NCBI GenBank assembly: GCA_001786955.1
Contig: MFUM01000004.1
Span: 4,457 to 68,456 of the forward strand
Direction of reading: 5' to 3'
From: Candidatus Nomurabacteria bacterium RIFCSPHIGHO2_12_FULL_42_19
Lineage (GTDB): Bacteria > Patescibacteriota > Minisyncoccia > Phycocordibacterales > UBA9973
DNA length: 64,000 nucleotides
Position 1 is the first letter of the stretch. Every line of letters begins with the position of its first letter. The notes under the pieces were generated by a model that was not told the origin of the DNA, searched no databases, and saw only the letters and a program-made list of their open reading frames with translations. Position numbers and translations under genes: made by a program. Positions 3,139 to 63,325 of this stretch are shown piece after piece.

Positions 3139-4338
3139 TTAGGATTTTAAATACCCTTTTAAAAATTCCTTCTTGAATTCAAAGAAGTTGTCGTCCAGGA
3201 TTGACTGCCGGATTTTTTTAACTAAATTAATAATGAAATACAAATTATGTATTGAAGCAAGAGTTGCGGCCAGTATTTCTTTACCATGAAAGAGATGGGC
3301 GAGGTAAGCGCGGGAATAGTTCGCGCATAAATAGCATTTACAATTCTCTTCAACCGCATTAAAGTCATTTTTATATTTAGCATTCATTATATTTATTTTC
3401 CCATTTTTGGTATAGAGTGAGCCATTGCGGGCATTGCGCGTCGGCGCAACGCAATCAAACAAATCCACGCCGTTTTCTATGCCCATAAACAAATCCTCCG
3501 GCTCGCCGATGCCGAGCAGATGCCGAGGCTTTTCTTCCGGCAATATTTCATTTACCCATCGGACCGCTGTCTGCATATCTTCCTTGGCAAAAGAGCCGCC
3601 GATACCAAAACCGTCAAAATCTAAACTCTTTAGAAAGTTTGCCGATTTTTTTCGGAGCGTTTCGTCTCTTCCGCCTTGCACAATACCGAACAATGCAATG
3701 TTGTTTTTTTTATTTAATTTATCATGTTCTTCTAAACTTCTTTTTGCCCAATTATGAGTTCGTTCCAACGCCTCTGTCTGATATCTAAAATCTTCCGCCG
3801 GGCTGGTGCACTCGTCAAAAGCAAAAATTATATCTGCGCCCAGGTTGTGCTGGATTTGGATTGATTTTTCCGGAGTGATGTAATGGATGCTGCCGTCCAA
3901 GTGCGATTTAAAAGAAACCCCGTCCTGTCCGATTTTAGCCAAACGAGGAGCACCAGAGTCATCAAAGCGTTCCGGAATCAACAAGGACGAATCGGTAATT
4001 TTTGTGATTTTAGAAACCTGCTTACCATAAGCTGCGCCCAGGGAAAAAACCTGAAAGCCGCCGGAATCGGTAATTATAGGGCTATTCCAATTCATAAATT
4101 TATGCAGACCGCCCGCTTTGGCTACCAACTCATCACCAGGCTGTAAATATAAATGATAGGTATTGGCTAAAATTACTTCAGCTCCCAGATCCCTAGCCTG
4201 CTCGGGGGTCAGAGCTTTCACGCTGGCTTTCGTGCCGACCGGCACAAAAGCCGGAGTCTGAATAACTCCATGCGCTGTAGTGATGACTCCCACCCTTCCT
4301 AAACAATTTTCCAATTTTTTCTCTATTTTGAAATGCAT
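3139..4338 (-). CDS. tgt: queuine tRNA-ribosyltransferase (tRNA-guanine transglycosylase)
   Basis: TPAFVPVGT, ILANTYHL, TDSGGFQVFSL, FAFDECT, LFGIVQGG and a CxCxxC zinc site (CKCYLC). Confidence 0.9.
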   Translation of the reverse strand: MHFKIEKKLENCLGRVGVITTAHGVIQTPAFVPVGTKASVKALTPEQARDLGAEVILANTYHLYLQPGDELVAKAGGLHKFMNWNSPIITDSGGFQVFSLGAAYGKQVSKITKITDSSLLIPERFDDSGAPRLAKIGQDGVSFKSHLDGSIHYITPEKSIQIQHNLGADIIFAFDECTSPAEDFRYQTEALERTHNWAKRSLEEHDKLNKKNNIALFGIVQGGRDETLRKKSANFLKSLDFDGFGIGGSFAKEDMQTAVRWVNEILPEEKPRHLLGIGEPEDLFMGIENGVDLFDCVAPTRNARNGSLYTKNGKINIMNAKYKNDFNAVEENCKCYLCANYSRAYLAHLFHGKEILAATLASIHNLYFIINLVKKIRQSILDDNFFEFKKEFLKGYLKS

Positions 4339-4418
4339 TGATTTTGCGAAATCACGTCACGCAAGTTAATTCTGATGAATTATGTCGTGTTCTCCTTTAA
4401 AACACGACCGGCGCGACG
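4339..4418 (-). promoter_or_regulatory. two-hairpin leader motif, copy L2, abutting the tgt ATG (with an extra internal hairpin)
   Basis: TGATTTTGCGAAATCA (4339-4354). CGTCACGC (4355-4362) pairs with GCGCGACG (4411-4418). Inserted hairpin GTCGTGTT/AACACGAC at 4384-4408. Confidence 0.5.
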
Positions 4419-5252: not shown

Positions 5253-6279
5253 CTTGGTTGCCAATCAGAATTTCTTTATAAAGAGGAAGATTGTCCAGAA
5301 TTACCCCCGTCCCGCGAGCCACGGCCGAGAGCGGATCTTCCACTACATAAACCGGAATTTTAAGAACTCTTTGTAAAAGCTGGTCAAGCCCCGGAAGCAA
5401 AGCCCCGCCGCCGGACAAAGTAATCCCCCGATGCATTATGTCGGATAAAATTTCCGGCGGTGTCGTTTCCAGCATGTCTTTCACGCCTTCTACCAGACTT
5501 TTGATTGAAGATGAAAGCGCTTCACGAATATCGGAATCCGTCACCACTACTTCGCGCGGCAATCCGGTAAGAAGGTCCCGTCCGTGGACTTCTGTTTCCA
5601 TGTATTCTCCCTGGACAACGGAACCGATGGCAATCTTGACCATCTCGGCTGTCCGCTCTCCAATCAGTATTTTAAATTCATCGCGCATATAAGTGATAAT
5701 GTCATTATTCAGCCGGTCGCCGGCTATTTTCAGATTTTTTGACTTGACGATTCCGCCCAAGGAAATTACCGCAACATCTGTCGTTCCGCCGCCGACGTCT
5801 ATAATCATGGAACCAACGGGGTCTTTGATTGGAAGCCGGATGCCGATGGCGGCCGCCATCGGTTCTTCTACCAGGAAAACTTCCCTGGCGCCGGCGGAGC
5901 GCGCCGCATCGTAGACTGCCCGCGTTTCAACGTTAGTCGTGCCGGATGGCACGCCGACCAGGACTCTCGGCCGCGCCAACTTTTTGGACATTTTGTCGGC
6001 TTTGTTTATCAGATAGGAGAGCATTTCTTCGGTTACTTCAAAATCGGAAATAACGCCATCCACCAGCGGACGGATAGCTTTGATGTGCCCGGGAGTGCGC
6101 CCGAGCATTTCTTTGGCCTGCACGCCAACTGCCAGGATTTGATTGGTTTTGATGTTGACTGCCACGACTGAAGGCTCGTTGATTACGATACCGTGGCCTT
6201 TCAAATACACCAAGGTATTGGAAGTGCCCAGATCTATGCCGATGTCGTTGGAGATTAATTTGTAGAATTTTTCAAACAT
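5233..6279 (-). CDS. mreB: rod shape-determining actin-like protein MreB
   Basis: DLGTSNTLVY, DVGGGTTDVAVISLGG and LSGGGALL motifs. Confidence 0.95.
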   Translation of the reverse strand: MFEKFYKLISNDIGIDLGTSNTLVYLKGHGIVINEPSVVAVNIKTNQILAVGVQAKEMLGRTPGHIKAIRPLVDGVISDFEVTEEMLSYLINKADKMSKKLARPRVLVGVPSGTTNVETRAVYDAARSAGAREVFLVEEPMAAAIGIRLPIKDPVGSMIIDVGGGTTDVAVISLGGIVKSKNLKIAGDRLNNDIITYMRDEFKILIGERTAEMVKIAIGSVVQGEYMETEVHGRDLLTGLPREVVVTDSDIREALSSSIKSLVEGVKDMLETTPPEILSDIMHRGITLSGGGALLPGLDQLLQRVLKIPVYVVEDPLSAVARGTGVILDNLPLYKEILIGNQDELPPR

Positions 6280-6281
6280 AA

Positions 6282-6323
6282 TTAAGAACGGTTCTTAAGA
6301 AGTTTCCCCAAGAACCGTTCTTG
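6282..6323. repeat. two copies of the palindrome AAGAACsGTTCTT
   Basis: TTAAGAACGGTTCTTAA (6282-6298) and CAAGAACCGTTCTTG (6309-6323). Third copy at 49213-49225. Confidence 0.6.
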
Positions 6324-7551
6324 TTAATTCTTCTAAAGAAACAATTTTTCCTTTCTCTTCAGCACGTTTTTTTAATTCTATTCCTTTTTCTTTTATACTC
6401 CGTAGAGATACAACCGCGCGAAATGGTATTCCAAGTAAATCCGCATCAGAAAACTTTTCTCCAGCCGATATGTTCATTCGGTCATCGAACAGGACTTCAA
6501 TACCCGCTTTCGATAAGCTTTTATAAACTCTATCAGCTTCTGCCGAAGTTGTTTCATCGTCCCCAAGCGCAAGCAAATGCACCTGAAATGGCGCTATAGA
6601 TTCCGGCCAAATTATACCTTTATCGTCGGCCAGAACCTCTACCACCGTGCCCAAGAGACGCCCCAGCCCTATGCCATAACAACCCATTAAAACAGGGTGT
6701 TTTTCCCCTTTTTCGTCTGTAAAGGATAAATCAAACGGCGCTGAGTATTTTGTTTTTAAGTCAAAAATATTCCCAACCTCAATAGCTCTTTGCTCGACTA
6801 ATTTTTCCTTTTTCAGATTAAGCTGGTTTAAAATCTCATCACTTAAAACCTCCTTATTCACGGCAACACCGCTCGCTTCATCAACATAGATAACATCTTC
6901 GCCCACGGGAGTAATGGTTTGAAATTCATGCGAATATTTTGCAAAAGTCCCGCCTGAAGCGAAAGTCATATAAGTCAGGTGCCCAATACCGACTCTGGAA
7001 AAAATAGTTTTATAAGCATCTTGCATTTTGCTGTAAAAATTTTCAAAGTCCCCAGCCGAAGTGTGAAAAGAATACATGTCTTTCATGATAAATTCCCTAC
7101 CACGCAACATTCCGGACTTGGCGCGAAGTTCCATTCTAAACTTATTTTGAATTTGATAAATATAGAGCGGAAAATCTTTATGCGAGGAAATATAATTTTT
7201 TAAAATTGGAACAACTATTTCTTCATGGGTGGGTCCCAGGGCAACTTCCCGACCGGAAGAATCTCCGACTTTGTATAAATCATCCATTGCCTGCCACCGG
7301 CCGGTTTTTTCCCAATTTTCTTTCGGCTGCATTGTGGACATCAGGACTTCCTGCCCACCGACTTTATCCATCTCTTCCCTGATTATATTTTCAATTTTCC
7401 TTAAAACCCGAAGCCCCAGCGGCAGGTAGCTATAAACTCCGGCCATTTCTTTGTGAACAAAACCCCCGCGAATAAGCAATTCGGCGTTTCTGGAAACTTC
7501 ATCCGCCGGACTCTCTTTTCTGGTCCTGGTAAAAAGCTTAGATTGTCTCAT
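6295..7551 (-). CDS. proS: prolyl-tRNA synthetase, short form apparently lacking the INS editing domain
   Basis: MRQSKLFTRTRKESPADEVSRNAELLIRGG N-terminus, class II motifs and a C-terminal anticodon-binding domain. About 418 aa. Confidence 0.9.
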   Translation of the reverse strand: MRQSKLFTRTRKESPADEVSRNAELLIRGGFVHKEMAGVYSYLPLGLRVLRKIENIIREEMDKVGGQEVLMSTMQPKENWEKTGRWQAMDDLYKVGDSSGREVALGPTHEEIVVPILKNYISSHKDFPLYIYQIQNKFRMELRAKSGMLRGREFIMKDMYSFHTSAGDFENFYSKMQDAYKTIFSRVGIGHLTYMTFASGGTFAKYSHEFQTITPVGEDVIYVDEASGVAVNKEVLSDEILNQLNLKKEKLVEQRAIEVGNIFDLKTKYSAPFDLSFTDEKGEKHPVLMGCYGIGLGRLLGTVVEVLADDKGIIWPESIAPFQVHLLALGDDETTSAEADRVYKSLSKAGIEVLFDDRMNISAGEKFSDADLLGIPFRAVVSLRSIKEKGIELKKRAEEKGKIVSLEELTRTVLGETS

Positions 7552-10435: not shown

Positions 10436-11686
10436 TTATCTCCAAGTCGGTTTTTTGGATAAAATGGTATTGTAAACTCCTTTTATAAGCCAAAATGGAG
10501 CGATAATGCTAAAAACGGGAAAGAAATAAAGCATATTAAGGGAAAAAAGAGTTTTCTCTTCGGTCATTTTCCGCCCAAAAATTATTGCAAAAATTACCAA
10601 AAAATATATGACGAACACAAGAAACATAAAAGACCGGGTATTTATAAAAAAGGTATCAAAATAAAGACTTTTGATGGAGAAATAGAATCCGATAGTATTC
10701 AAAACTATAATCTTTGAATATAAAAAATTTCCCAAGTTATATATAATCTGGCCGAAAAGGTAGCTGACCGAAAAAATGGAGATAATTCCCATAGGCAGGG
10801 TAAAAGTGGCGAAATTACCGTATTTTTTTCTGAATAAAACATCGCGGTAATCAATCGTGTTATTTATAAAACCATAAATCCAGCGCACTCTTTGGCGGTA
10901 AAGCTTTCCGATTGTCGGCGGCGTATTGGTATAAACATACGCATCATTGCAATGCTCTATTTTATAGCGATTTTTCTGCATGCGATAAGCAATTTCCATA
11001 TCTTCCGTGTTGTGGCCATGGCGATATGGTCCTAGTTCATCAAATACTCTTTTCCTGAAAATTGTCAGAGGTCCCGGAGTTACATTGATAGCTCCCAAAA
11101 AACCGAGCATCTTTTTAAGATAAACTCCCATATTGTACTCGGCTTTCTGCGCGTATTGGATAAAGTTTTTCGGATTATGCACAATCACTGAGGGGGCTAC
11201 AGCCATGATACTGGGATTTTTTTCAAAATAACCCATAATTCGGACAAGCGACTCCGGATCTGTCACGGAATCCGCATCAAGACAGCCAAAAAAATCAGTC
11301 TCTAGATTTTCCAGTCCCAGATTCAGCGCGGTATATTTTCCCCCATTTTTCTTGTAAAAAACTTTTATGTTGGGATATCCCGAAAATTTATTTATTACAT
11401 TCCAAGTGCCGTCGGTAGACCCGTCATCCACGAGAAAGATTTGAATCCTATCTTGGGGGTAATTCAAATCAAGCAGAGAGCGTACTGTTTTATAGACAGT
11501 TTTTTCTTCGTTCCAGCAAGGCACGGTAATCGTCACCTTTGGATAAAAGCTGAGCTTAATTTTTTCATTTCTTTTTCTGGTGACTATCTTTTTCCTGTTC
11601 TCAAAAAAAGTGACGAAAAAAAAGACCTGCACGTAAACAGAAAAAAAGACCAAGATATAAAATATAACATCCGAAATTGAAGTCAT
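10436..11686 (-). CDS. family 2 glycosyltransferase, processive type with C-terminal TM helices
   Basis: DDGSTDGT, CLDADS, TEDMEIAY and QRVRW (QxxRW) motifs. Confidence 0.85.
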   Translation of the reverse strand: MTSISDVIFYILVFFSVYVQVFFFVTFFENRKKIVTRKRNEKIKLSFYPKVTITVPCWNEEKTVYKTVRSLLDLNYPQDRIQIFLVDDGSTDGTWNVINKFSGYPNIKVFYKKNGGKYTALNLGLENLETDFFGCLDADSVTDPESLVRIMGYFEKNPSIMAVAPSVIVHNPKNFIQYAQKAEYNMGVYLKKMLGFLGAINVTPGPLTIFRKRVFDELGPYRHGHNTEDMEIAYRMQKNRYKIEHCNDAYVYTNTPPTIGKLYRQRVRWIYGFINNTIDYRDVLFRKKYGNFATFTLPMGIISIFSVSYLFGQIIYNLGNFLYSKIIVLNTIGFYFSIKSLYFDTFFINTRSFMFLVFVIYFLVIFAIIFGRKMTEEKTLFSLNMLYFFPVFSIIAPFWLIKGVYNTILSKKPTWR

Positions 11687-11726
11687 GCGCTTACTGCCAA
11701 TATAGCATTTTAGAAGTTAGATGTAA

Positions 11727-11796
11727 ACCCGTCACACTTACTTTTATGACACAACTAAATTAAATTATTACATATCGTTAAAGTAAGTGTGCGGGT
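11727..11796 (-). terminator. long hairpin (17-18 bp stem) downstream of the DUF378 gene
   Basis: ACCCGtCACACTTACTTT (11727-11744) pairs with AAAGTAAGTGTGCGGGT (11780-11796). Confidence 0.4.
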
Positions 11797-11813
11797 AAAT
11801 GAAAAAACAAAAA

Positions 11814-12107
11814 TTACATTTTCTTGTCCATACCCCCCGCTTCACAAGAAGCACAAGCTTCCATGCATTTCTTGCACCTGCAGCCAAAAATCTTCATAAC
11901 TGCGGCGAGACCCACAAGAACATAGACGACTCCTTCAGCAACCGGCCAAGAGCCGAGAAGTAGATTGACAACATTCCAATTGCTGCCATTGCCCATCAAC
12001 AATGCCACGCCTACCAAACCCCAATTCAAGCCTCCTATAATCAATAAGGGCTTCCTGACTTTCCTTACAACACACCCACTTTTACAACAACCTTTTCCAT
12101 TACACAT
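11814..12107 (-). CDS. DUF378-like membrane protein with Cys-rich N- and C-terminal tails
   Basis: Core LLIIGGLNWGLVGV...YVLVGLAAV resembles DUF378. Tails are MCNGKGCCKSGC and CRCKKCMEACASCE. Confidence 0.55.
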   Translation of the reverse strand: MCNGKGCCKSGCVVRKVRKPLLIIGGLNWGLVGVALLMGNGSNWNVVNLLLGSWPVAEGVVYVLVGLAAVMKIFGCRCKKCMEACASCEAGGMDKKM

Positions 12108-12170: not shown

Positions 12171-12258
12171 TAAAAAAGACCTTTATGTTAATACAGTTAT
12201 TATATCATATTCTTAAAATATGCTACAATGGTATATTACAAGTTAAATAGCAGAAGAA

Positions 12259-12303
12259 GTCGCGCTTCAATGGACAATTGCGCGACACGATTCTGCAGAA
12301 TCG
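12259..12303 (+). promoter_or_regulatory. two-hairpin leader motif, copy L3, 4 nt before the dsbA-like ATG
   Basis: GTCGCGC (12259-12265) / GCGCGAC (12280-12286), then the palindrome GATTCTGCAGAATC (12289-12302). An upstream TGcTACAAT is a possible -10. Confidence 0.55.
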
Positions 12304-12307
12304 AAAT

Positions 12308-12991
12308 ATGCAAAACAATGACCAAAAACCGATAGCCGGGGCAATCCTTATCGTAGGGGTTCTCATCGCCGGAGCAATTCTGTTAAAAGACAGCAAGGCG
12401 CCAATAGTAAATGCACCAGCTGCAAACAATGAAAAAAATCCGACAACCGGAAGACCGGTCTCATCGGCTGACCATATAATAGGAAGCCTGAATGCAAGAT
12501 TAGTTATAGTAGAATATTCGGATCTTGAATGTCCGTTTTGCAAAGTATTTCACGACACAATGCATAAAGTGGTAGATAACAGCAACGGCAAGGTTGCTTG
12601 GGTGTTTAGGCATTACCCGATTCCCCAACTTCATTCAAAAGCTTTTCGCGAAGCCGAGGCCACGGAATGCGCTTGGGAGCAGGGCGAAAATGACGCTTTT
12701 TGGAAATATACAGACAGGTTGTTTGAGATTACTCCATCCAATAACGGCCTGGATGCGGCTTTACTGCCTGAGATTGCCGAATATGCCGGATTGAATGTCG
12801 CGTCTTTTAATGATTGTCTGGTTAGCGGAAAATTCACAAATAAAGTTCAAGCTGATATTGATGATGGAATCAAGGCAGGCGTAAATGGAACCCCGTCTTC
12901 TTTCATCCTGCAAAAGGGTTCCCGCGTTGATACTATCCCGGGTGCCCAGCCGTATGAATCGGTGATGCAAAGATTAAGCGAGATAAAATAA
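12308..12991 (+). CDS. DsbA-family thiol:disulfide oxidoreductase, membrane anchored
   Basis: The CPFC active site follows EYSDLE, and GVNGTPSF is DsbA-like. The ATG at 12308 is preferred because it follows the leader motif. Confidence 0.75.
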   Translation: MQNNDQKPIAGAILIVGVLIAGAILLKDSKAPIVNAPAANNEKNPTTGRPVSSADHIIGSLNARLVIVEYSDLECPFCKVFHDTMHKVVDNSNGKVAWVFRHYPIPQLHSKAFREAEATECAWEQGENDAFWKYTDRLFEITPSNNGLDAALLPEIAEYAGLNVASFNDCLVSGKFTNKVQADIDDGIKAGVNGTPSSFILQKGSRVDTIPGAQPYESVMQRLSEIK

Positions 12992-36291: not shown

Positions 36292-38397
<2,106 letters not shown>

Positions 38398-48608: not shown

Positions 48609-49202
48609 TTAATTTATCTGCACTCTGCCGGAAGGGTATAATTTAATTACAGCCGTCATTGATTGGGGTGATTTAATGGTAATTTGAATATAATCAAAAT
48701 TATTAGTTAATGTTGTACCACTTGAATCTTTAAAAATTGCGCCGGAATCTGTCCGTTTAAAAATAATAGATAGGGGGCTAATTGGAACACTCGGAACACA
48801 AGCAACACCGGTGCATCTGTCTATTCCAAATATGTAATTATTTTTTTGAATATCTATAGTGTTTAATGCTTCTCCGGCTTCGTAACCATTAAGATTATTA
48901 AAATCAGCAAAATAAATAAAACTTTTATTATTACTGAGGTCAAAATAAGTTCCATAAGACGGCTTCCAGGGCGAAACGGTTGGCGCCTGGGTCGGCAATA
49001 AGCCGGATAGGGATGATTTCTGCGCCTGAACGATTTGCAAAGCAATATCGCTGGCAAGATTTTTTATGTCAACTTTTGCCTGAAAACCCCCGTAGTTAAA
49101 CATCACAATAGAAGACATGGCCGAAAAAATGCTCAGAACAACAATGAGTTCTACATAACTCATTCCCGCATTTGTTCTATTTTTTTTGTTTAATTTTTTC
49201 AT
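48609..49202 (-). CDS. prepilin-type N-terminal cleavage/methylation domain protein (minor pilin)
   Basis: AGMSYVELIVVLSIFSA class III signal. Confidence 0.65.
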   Translation of the reverse strand: MKKLNKKNRTNAGMSYVELIVVLSIFSAMSSIVMFNYGGFQAKVDIKNLASDIALQIVQAQKSSLSGLLPTQAPTVSPWKPSYGTYFDLSNNKSFIYFADFNNLNGYEAGEALNTIDIQKNNYIFGIDRCTGVACVPSVPISPLSIIFKRTDSGAIFKDSSGTTLTNNFDYIQITIKSPQSMTAVIKLYPSGRVQIN

Positions 49203-49212
49203 TTTTTAAAGA

Positions 49213-49225
49213 AAGAACCGTTCTT
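49213..49225. repeat. third copy of the palindrome AAGAACCGTTCTT
   Basis: Lies 11-23 nt upstream of the minor pilin ATG (49202). Compare 6282-6323. Confidence 0.5.
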
Positions 49226-63273: not shown

Positions 63274-63325
63274 TTGATTTGATTTTGCGAAATCATGCCG
63301 CGCAACCGTCCGTTTTAGCGTAGCG
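63274..63325 (-). promoter_or_regulatory. two-hairpin leader motif, copy L4, near the ATG of the YtxH-like gene
   Basis: TGATTTTGCGAAATCA (63280-63295). TGCCGCGC (63296-63303) partially pairs with GCGTAGCG (63318-63325). Confidence 0.45.

Follow-up and report, generated by a model that had tools for sequence, protein, structure and literature searches.

A two-hairpin unit in front of four genes

The window analyzed here is a stretch of 64,000 nucleotides (contig MFUM01000004.1, positions 4,457 to 68,456) of Candidatus Nomurabacteria bacterium RIFCSPHIGHO2_12_FULL_42_19. It contains four copies of a short repeated element that would fold into two adjacent hairpins and that ends directly before the start codon of a gene. 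The copies are lettered A to D and precede glnA (A), tgt (B), a gene for a DsbA-like protein (C, the copy that was flagged) and an open reading frame (ORF) of 121 amino acids (D). An earlier reading made from the letters alone, here called the sequence-only reading, had described the four as a conserved leader and had suggested an RNA structure controlling initiation, a binding site for a dimeric regulator, or a mobile hairpin family near start codons. All four copies were found where that reading had placed them. Read in gene orientation, the unit consists of a GC stem beginning with (C)GTCGCGC, a loop of 13 to 14 nt, the returning arm GCGCGAC(G), one base, a second hairpin YGATTYYGCRRAATCR, and 0 to 6 nt before the ATG. 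All four copies are sense to their gene, with the 3' edge 0 to 6 nt before the ATG. The motif GATTYYGCRRAATC has exactly 4 matches in the window, against 0.02 expected from shuffled sequence, and allowing two mismatches added only chance-level matches. A scan with a covariance model of 104 copies returned just these four in the window, at 64.9 bits (A), 63.9 bits (C), 53.6 bits (D) and 29.5 bits, with the next-best match at 9 bits. The parts of the four copies are as follows, in plus-strand numbering.

12259 to 12303, plus strand: copy C, ending 4 nt before the ATG (12308) of the DsbA-like gene
12259 to 12265, plus strand: left arm of stem 1 of copy C, GTCGCGC, pairing with 12280 to 12286
12266 to 12279, plus strand: 14-nt loop of copy C, TTCAATGGACAATT
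12280 to 12286, plus strand: right arm of stem 1 of copy C, GCGCGAC
12287, plus strand: single base A of copy C
12288 to 12303, plus strand: hairpin 2 of copy C, CGATTCTGCAGAATCG
12304 to 12307, plus strand: spacer AAAT, followed by the ATG at 12308
12225 to 12230, plus strand: TACAAT, a -10-like hexamer with TG one base upstream, a putative promoter conserved in L207, L212 and L213
432 to 476, minus strand: copy A, abutting the glnA ATG (431 to 429; Gln-synt_N), with hairpin 2 at 432 to 447, stem 1 at 448 to 455 and 469 to 476, and a 13-nt loop at 456 to 468
4339 to 4418, minus strand: copy B, a nested pair that fills the mreC-tgt spacer and abuts the tgt ATG (4338 to 4336)
4339 to 4354 and 4355 to 4362 with 4411 to 4418, minus strand: hairpin 2 and the two arms of the outer copy of B
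4367 to 4382 and 4384 to 4391 with 4401 to 4409, minus strand: hairpin 2 (TAATTCATCAGAATTA) and stem 1 of the inner, degenerate copy of B
63280 to 63325, minus strand: copy D, ending 6 nt before the ATG (63273) of the 121-aa, Lys-rich ORF
63280 to 63295 and 63297 to 63303 with 63318 to 63325, minus strand: hairpin 2 and the imperfect stem 1 of copy D

Copy C has the orientation of its own plus-strand gene, although the neighboring genes are on the minus strand. The TACAAT hexamer is conserved in relatives, and copy C would therefore be transcribed within the 5' leader of the DsbA-like gene. Copy A is placed after an AT-rich promoter region that succeeds a good terminator at 629 to 600. Copy D begins 10 nt past the stop codon of an upstream DUF948-like ORF, and a gene homologous to the 121-aa ORF in another genome (L114) likewise carries the element. 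An extra internal hairpin had been described in copy B; the hairpin is present, but it is actually a second, degenerate copy, GGTCGTGTT-loop-AACACGAC-A-TAATTCATCAGAATTA, nested within loop 1 of the outer copy. The G-U-compatible change noted for the tgt copy is there as well (GCGTGACG opposite CGTCGCGC). The whole unit of copy B scored 42.5 bits (L001), with a predicted fold of -30.5 kcal/mol. Fold z-scores were strong for copies A (-2.7), B (-4.1) and C (-3.3) and weak for copy D (-0.1). Hairpin 2 is thermodynamically marginal alone, and the minimum-energy folds predicted for A and C leave it unformed. The pairing of the 5' flank with hairpin 2 that these minimum-energy folds contain was ruled out, since the flank is not conserved.

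Pfam matches confirmed the assignments of glnA (its N-terminal part), tgt and the DsbA-like thioredoxin downstream of copies A, B and C. The label YtxH-like for the 121-aa ORF downstream of copy D found no such support, and no significant family was obtained. Among named organisms, Candidatus Nomurabacteria have the nearest relatives of the proteins encoded in the window. Gene callers already place starts within the element. The JGI call for the 237-aa DsbA-like protein starts at a TTG in loop 1 (window 12278 to 12307, P0001), which adds the residues LRDTILQNRN at the N-terminus. Close homologs begin with MQNN, which indicates that the ATG at 12308 is the real start.

The unit is a repeat family of Paceibacteria

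A 23-nt pattern, GCGYGRCRYGATTYYGCRRAATC, was scanned over one genome per species and matched at least 117 stretches, against about 4 expected by chance, a rough estimate from the information in the pattern and the size of the collection. Nearly all of the matches listed came from metagenome-assembled genomes (MAGs) of Paceibacteria, Nomurabacteria or Parcubacteria. About a dozen of the matches listed fell in unrelated phyla; these lack the left arm and fit the chance expectation. Viral contigs (IMG/VR) gave 0 matches to the element. The same 45- to 46-nt unit occurs more than 100 times across MAGs of Paceibacteria, which are tiny bacteria of groundwater. Its left arm, which the pattern does not constrain, is complementary to the right arm, 11 to 14 nt upstream, in 103 of the 118 matches listed, and loop 1 measured 13 nt in 69 copies and 14 nt in 22 of these matches. 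Alignment A1, comprising 104 copies from the matches listed, is the basis of the covariation counts and of the covariance model.

In this alignment the unit is a 7-bp GC stem, a 13- to 14-nt loop with a conserved GAC, one unpaired base, and a 6-bp hairpin YGAUUY-YGCR-RAAUCR. The earlier description of stem 1 is corrected to 7 bp for the majority of copies; 71 of 104 do not form an eighth pair. Strong covariation was seen at three base pairs: pair 9-34 (UA in 76 copies, CG in 26, 1 broken), pair 37-52 (UA in 78, CG in 25, 0 broken) and pair 42-47 (UA in 71, CG in 30). None of 500 shuffles reached the observed covariation score. The paired changes from T..A to C..G in hairpin 2, first seen among the window copies, thus hold across the 104 copies. 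Within hairpin 2 the closing pair and pair 5/10 covary whereas the central positions 6/9 do not, so hairpin 2 is taken as 6 bp with a YGCR loop. An independent copy found with the covariance model (L165) has a G-C to A-U change at a pair fixed by the search pattern. The three strongly covarying pairs indicate that the hairpins matter, and covariation of this kind marks a single strand of RNA or DNA that folds, as opposed to a protein operator.

Mutual information revealed no further pairs. It did separate two linked subfamilies, one joining loop TTCAATGGACAYT with GATTYTGCARAATC and the other loop CTAAAGGACGGTT with GATTTCGCAAAATC, and both are present in the window. A correlation between columns 29 and 46 was considered as a loop-loop tertiary pair and is best explained by these subfamilies. 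Pairing of the loop GAC with the GUC of the left arm was ruled out, as the loop is unchanged when the arm becomes GCC. A CsrA-type GGA site in the loop was also rejected: only GAC is conserved, and copy A lacks GGA. Rfam 15 searched against the window returned only tRNAs at the gathering score, and the sole weak match, sau-13 (E = 4.8), is noise. A literature search for a described repeat of this kind in the candidate phyla radiation (CPR) found no description.

Several copies are compound. Nested copies occur in window copy B and in L032, L039 and L054, and tandem or partial duplicates in L088, L092 and L118. A subfamily marked by GGTCGCGCCCAACGGACTTGCGCGACACGATTCCGCAGAATCG forms partial tandem arrays (L092; L118 at about 6250 to 6340; L088), and in L088 a 27-nt duplication of the right arm and hairpin 2 lies in frame within a sugar-transferase gene.

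Position of the copies relative to genes

Locations were tallied for 111 copies among the matches listed. Sixty of them end 0 to 8 nt upstream of an ATG that opens an ORF of 50 aa or more, and another 8 end at the same distance from the start of a short ORF, among them two small basic ORFs that are conserved. Seventeen (about 15%) lie inside long ORFs. The other 26 are elsewhere: just past stop codons, beside DnaA boxes and between tRNA genes. Spacing to the ATG is tight: 16 copies adjoin it directly, 35 leave 1 nt, 2 leave 2 nt and 8 leave 3 nt. Nearly every copy has the sense orientation of the adjoining or host gene. For 24 of the 60 ATG-adjacent copies a co-directional gene ends no more than 80 nt upstream, which places those 24 within operons; the remaining ones are preceded by promoter-like AT-rich DNA.

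The downstream genes are diverse and many are highly expressed; they include rplL, rplJ, rpsL, rpsR, tuf, frr, nusA, hup and atpG and, by N-terminal sequence alone, recA, gyrB, several tRNA synthetases and transporters. A shared function of the downstream genes, a question raised by the sequence-only reading, was not found. Two of the short ORFs recur. A very basic 21-aa ORF, MGKGNNAYRKDVKKPKKAKKK, stands directly after the element in L057 and L115, and a very basic ORF of 41 to 43 aa that begins MAKRSTTLSPKKKSRRSHKT stands after it in L031 and L120; both are conserved and without a Pfam family.

Other roles that the position might suggest were considered and rejected. A start codon within the element (RYG at the junction, or an ATG in the loop) has no consistent frame with the downstream ORF. 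A promoter within the element, with TGGACA in loop 1 as -35 and CAAAAT in hairpin 2 as -10, would have a spacer of 18 to 19 nt and was not called by the promoter scan; moreover, at the common 0- to 1-nt spacing its start site would fall in the ORF. A replication origin was dismissed because the window shows no enrichment of DnaA boxes, with 20 found where 14.6 are expected. A perfect box of this kind, TTATCCACA, does lie at 558 to 566, about 80 nt upstream of the glnA copy, and three copies elsewhere (L022, the second copy of L118, and L123) are flanked by DnaA-box-like TTATCCACA or TGGATATAAC. The window also holds a second hairpin family, built on AGAACGGTTCT. It forms a long inverted repeat at 6284 to 6322 that ends 5 nt before the mreB ATG (6279), and a single copy at 49214 to 49224 lies about 12 nt before the ATG at 49202. 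Its pattern has 6 matches in the window (three sites, both strands counted), against 0.9 expected.

Empty sites and patchy distribution

The word conserved in the earlier description does not hold for tgt and dsbA, whose orthologs in the closest relatives have empty sites. For tgt, 80 orthologous metagenome loci of 58 to 82% identity were compared, of which 76 had enough upstream sequence to judge. The element was present in 0 of these 76, and the closest of them keep mreC directly upstream, with its stop codon 2 to 24 nt from the tgt ATG. The empty site in L128 reads ...gtggaacagTAGaaataATG, against ...gtggaaataTAGaag, the 80-nt nested element and ATG in the window. For dsbA, the element was absent from five orthologous loci of four related genomes (L207/L208 and L209 to L212). 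The syntenic empty sites in L207/L208 (77% identity) and L212 (80% identity) have TG-n-TACAAT, about 28 nt, and ATG, whereas the filled site in the window has 29 nt between this promoter and the 45-nt element, which is followed by AAAT and ATG.

A sixth dsbA locus, from a fifth genome (L213, another Nomurabacteria relative), lacks the element too; an unrelated insertion of some 85 nt (L213:1865-1950) occupies nearly the same position in its leader. The bases before the dsbA start therefore seem to collect small repeats of more than one family. The L213 insertion is rich in the repeats GGCTCTAG and GCCTAG, and about 8 nt separate its end from the ATG.

With the covariance model, five syntenic 20-kb loci of relatives gave 0 copies and 293 kb of tgt neighborhoods from 80 genomes gave 1, against 4 in the 64-kb window. 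This contrast in density indicates a patchy distribution, with expansion in the lineage of the window. Conservation ends at the left arm on one side and at the closing base of hairpin 2 on the other.

Copies inside genes

At least 11 host protein families contain an in-frame copy. Ten are verified by Pfam, several with a domain match that spans the insert: uracil-DNA glycosylase (UDG) family 4, the GatA amidase, FtsK, RecA, a CFA-synthase-like methyltransferase, TrmD, a MurD-like ligase, a PduO-type adenosyltransferase, a sugar transferase and a DAO oxidoreductase. GroES (L106) is the eleventh and was recognized by eye. The FtsK insert lies in the linker before the alpha domain and the RecA insert in the C-terminal region. 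All intragenic copies are sense and all are read in one frame, (S/G)RASxD(G/T)ARHD(F/S)A(K/E)S. Stop codons were rejected as the cause of the single frame, since frames a and c are open equally (82 of 104 against 81 of 104). One explanation for the bias is that it could reflect selection for a hydrophilic, flexible peptide. Gene callers silently translate the element in RecA, FtsK, GroES and others, so that CPR protein families carry a recurrent, DNA-driven insert of 15 aa.

Nucleotide-level constraint on inserted copies

Orthologous copies allow the element to be compared with its surroundings. The nusA copy is common to five species and is 89 to 96% identical among them, against 24 to 47% at four-fold sites of nusA, which are saturated. 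These copies have a distinctive loop variant, TAATTTGACGGTT, which points to common descent and not to repeated independent insertion. Three intragenic orthologous pairs (FtsK, UDG and the sugar transferase) were identical at 23 of 25 four-fold sites inside the element (92%) and at 145 of 388 outside it (37%). In the left half only, which the search pattern leaves unconstrained, the four-fold identity was 12 of 13. Within the FtsK pair, AGC/CGG stands against AGT/CGA, two synonymous changes that together turn a C-G pair of stem 1 into U-A. Ascertainment with the strict pattern inflates these figures somewhat, and the contrast is still large. Inserted copies are thus under purifying selection at the nucleotide level, which leaves room for some cis function after insertion.

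Translation starts in the genomic background

The sequence-only reading had remarked on the lack of a Shine-Dalgarno sequence before the four genes. The remark is correct, but the lack is not special to them: across the genes of the window, Shine-Dalgarno-like 4-mers upstream are at background (4 of 41, against 9%), which makes it a property of the genome and not of these four genes. A -10-like (TATAAT-like) hexamer lies 4 to 9 nt before the ATG in 13 of 41 genes, for example at 38391, 63587, 61487 and 61064. Hexamers at this distance have the look of leaderless genes. Upstream regions in the window are A/T-rich. The 3' end of 16S rRNA in L087, an element-bearing MAG (minus strand, about 3590 to 3680), reads ...AAGTCGTAACAAGGCACGGGTAGCGGAAGCTGCTCGTGGATTAATTC, with no CCUCC after GGAT. 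This would fit an absence of Shine-Dalgarno use, as a single sequence from another MAG. A search for complementarity between the element and this 16S tail yielded nothing convincing.

A probable insertion repeat and the alternatives to it

We conclude that the element is a previously undescribed family of 45- to 46-nt non-coding, hairpin-forming insertion repeats in Paceibacteria (Parcubacteria, including Nomurabacteria). There is good support for a repeat family of the insertion type that is retained for its hairpins. Among the explanations offered earlier, the mobile hairpin family near start codons is favored by the empty and filled sites, the nested and tandem copies, the patchy distribution and the location of about 60% of copies within 0 to 8 nt of an ATG. 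An RNA structure controlling initiation, in the sense of a gene-specific conserved leader, is unsupported: orthologs lack the element, there is no regulon, and identical units lie inside ORFs. A cis-regulatory leader should be found before the same gene in relatives, and at tgt and dsbA it is not; at nusA the element is retained in five species. More specifically, it is likely that the element is a miniature insertion repeat comparable to repetitive extragenic palindromes (REPs) and Rickettsia palindromic elements (RPEs), tolerated or exapted before AUG codons in a lineage that apparently does not use Shine-Dalgarno pairing.

A tentative mechanism can be put forward. The element would spread through a folded single strand, and the enzyme that recognizes it in trans would require both hairpins. 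An HUH/Y1 transposase is the candidate class of mobilizing enzyme, suggested by the folded-strand signature together with the apparent lack of terminal repeats and target duplication. Copies would persist where harm is small. The bases just before a start codon may be permissive, given that there is no apparent Shine-Dalgarno pairing and that the 3' strand of hairpin 2 (AAAAUCA) keeps an A-rich context before the AUG, a context that resembles the native upstream regions of window genes. Surface loops may be permissive as well, provided that the hydrophilic frame RASxDxARHD(F/S)A(K/E)S is used. The window copies would be transcribed in a 5' leader (glnA, dsbA) or in an intercistronic spacer (mreC-tgt, DUF948-ORF), and the selection on inserted copies suggests an acquired use at the RNA level, for example as a 5' structural cap or insulator of a cistron. 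For the accumulation of copies at ATG codons, we rank tolerance with later exaptation first, with no apparent Shine-Dalgarno use, tiny intergenic DNA and the unrelated L213 element in the same leader in its favor. Function is ranked second, with the tight spacing, the almost exclusive sense orientation, the highly expressed hosts and the selection on its side. Y1_Tnp (IS200-like HUH) proteins of 233 to 242 aa are encoded in the Nomurabacteria relatives L209, L057, L067, L079 and L189; the L209 genes are at 3390 to 4091 (minus strand) and 11108 to 11836 (plus strand), in a region syntenic with the window.

Several observations weigh against an insertion repeat of this kind. No transposase or recombinase could be linked to the element; Y1_Tnp genes occur in some related loci, but they adjoin no copy, show no enrichment near copies and are missing from the window. 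No repeated flank indicative of target duplication was seen in 13 intragenic copies and 2 comparisons of filled and empty sites, where at most AA could be duplicated, and no terminal inverted repeat could be defined in the same comparisons. The 0- to 1-nt spacing, found in 51 copies, is tighter than insertion anywhere permissive in a short leader predicts. Near-identity across very divergent genomes, together with purifying selection, is unlike a purely selfish, decaying miniature inverted-repeat transposable element. The exclusive use of a single frame has the tentative peptide-tolerance argument as its sole explanation. Wobble cells, at 14 G-U against 15 A-C, give no sign of which strand folds. 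Finally, the copies were gathered with the strict 23-nt pattern, so the conservation of the right half is inflated.

The strongest of the other explanations is that the element is a portable, functional RNA expression module for a largely leaderless lineage without Shine-Dalgarno pairing, its spread by insertion being secondary and copies being kept because they work. The hairpins might define or expose the AUG, provide a processing site for a near-leaderless 5' end, stabilize the message against exonucleases or act as a structured ribosome-loading signal. The close spacing to the ATG, the sense orientation and the many copies before highly expressed genes (tuf, rplJ, rplL, rpsL, rpsR, frr and nusA) speak for it, as do the nusA copy kept in five species despite saturated synonymous sites and the nucleotide-level constraint even within ORFs. 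The lack of Shine-Dalgarno sequences in the genome, the many -10 hexamers 4 to 9 nt before the ATG and the L087 16S 3' end without CCUCC agree with it too. However, the same genes in the closest relatives manage without the element, and about 40% of copies are away from start codons, with about 15% in ORFs where a processing or initiation signal would do harm. Hairpin 2 is marginal and missing from the minimum-energy folds of A and C, wobble pairs do not favor the sense strand, and no Rfam family matches. Taken jointly, the variants of this explanation are rather unlikely. Less likely again is a self-spreading RNA cassette, useful to the host, that gives a cistron its own start signal or processed 5' end in bacteria that would start translation leaderless or nearly so after the loss of Shine-Dalgarno pairing, and is recognized by a conserved Paceibacteria factor, a hairpin version, as it would be, of mitochondrial tRNA punctuation. 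Such a factor would explain the near-invariance across the class, the 0- to 1-nt spacing to the AUG and the selection on copies within ORFs.

Two further explanations concern one hairpin each. In the first, the element would serve as an intrinsic terminator or attenuator, with transcription ended or paused at the GC hairpin and the UGAUUU after it, in leaders or between cistrons. The tract after the GC-rich stem is indeed moderately U-rich, copies B and D are each placed between two co-directional genes, and 24 of the 60 ATG-adjacent copies have an upstream gene that ends within 80 nt. Yet a loop of 13 to 14 nt with a broken U tract is poorly suited to termination, the element was not called in the terminator scan, and real terminators with short loops and T runs occur nearby (e.g., 629 to 600). 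Many copies are promoter-proximal with no upstream gene, or lie in ORFs, and no conserved antiterminator pairing was found, all of which makes termination very improbable. The AT-rich palindrome could instead be the operator of a dimeric regulator for a regulon of glnA, tgt, dsbA and the small ORF, the GC hairpin being incidental, and hairpin 2 does form a near-perfect palindrome of 14 to 16 bp near the start of each gene. But T..A and C..G variants coexist in one genome and covary as pairs, whereas the center (6/9) does not, which is how a stem and loop vary. Every palindrome has a covarying GC hairpin fused to it at a fixed distance and orientation, and palindromes occur inside ORFs as well as at 3' ends. 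No function unites the downstream genes, and the orthologous promoters of close relatives lack the element. An operator is thus the least probable of all the explanations and can nearly be dismissed.

The insertion repeat has several implications. A tiny repeat that colonizes extremely reduced genomes and is then held by selection makes a clear evolutionary case. Copies set against start codons offer a testable handle on the choice of starts and the expression of internal cistrons in Paceibacteria, and other genomes can readily be searched for the family with the 23-nt signature and the covariance model.

Comparison with known elements

REPs have an unpaired GTAG or CGTC tag, a stem of 8 to 9 bp and a loop of 4 to 5 nt, and they lie mainly downstream of ORFs, often as inverted dimers (PMC3733652). 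Two of the RPE families, RPE-4 and RPE-6, have been equated with CGTC-type REPs (PMC3733652). The Paceibacteria element resembles REPs and bacterial interspersed mosaic elements in being a GC-rich imperfect palindrome (20 to 40 nt for REPs) that is present in many copies, co-transcribed and occasionally intragenic. As in REPs, the stems are kept by compensatory change, and many copies start with CGTC. Unlike in REPs, this CGTC is within the stem and covaries to CGCC or GCC (T to C, pair 9-34), the loop has 13 to 14 nt and contains a conserved GAC, and the first hairpin has another fused to it. The copies are single, sense and mostly 5' of genes (68 of 111 are 0 to 8 nt upstream of an ATG). REPs are associated with a tyrosine transposase (RAYT, a Y1 HUH enzyme), whereas no flanked RAYT gene was found in the window or in the loci examined.

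The element also recalls the RPEs in being a short non-coding hairpin repeat with no encoded transposase, carried by small genomes of host-dependent bacteria. Both are found in intergenic DNA and in frame in unrelated housekeeping genes, where they add a tolerated peptide. RPEs are about 100 to 150 bp long and confined to Rickettsia, and it was their in-frame insertions in genes that made them known; they were reportedly described by Ogata et al. in 2000. RPEs are not known to prefer the position just before start codons. Unlike RPEs, the element is 45 to 46 nt long, occurs in many Paceibacteria lineages and has an almost unchanged sequence, with strong purifying selection on its copies. It seems to be unrelated to RPEs, from which its size and host set it apart.

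Correia elements of Neisseria (Correia repeat enclosed elements, CREE, or Neisseria miniature insertion sequences, NEMIS) are likewise small and non-autonomous, often lie just upstream of genes and are co-transcribed, and their hairpins in mRNA alter expression or processing. They are 100 to 155 bp long, with terminal inverted repeats, a TA duplication, promoter and IHF sites, and they are RNase III substrates. Terminal inverted repeats, TA duplication and promoter or IHF sites were not seen in the Paceibacteria element. A further likeness is to the mobile GC-cluster or byp insertions in genes of yeast mitochondria, hairpins of 27 to 55 nt in coding regions of a compact genome with leaderless-type mRNAs. 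Byps break the frame and are bypassed by the ribosome, whereas the frame of the Paceibacteria element is open and most simply translated.

In its behavior the element is closest to REPs and Rickettsia palindromic elements. It is distinctive in its size, its fused second hairpin, its near-invariance across the class, its position at start codons and the selection on its inserted copies.

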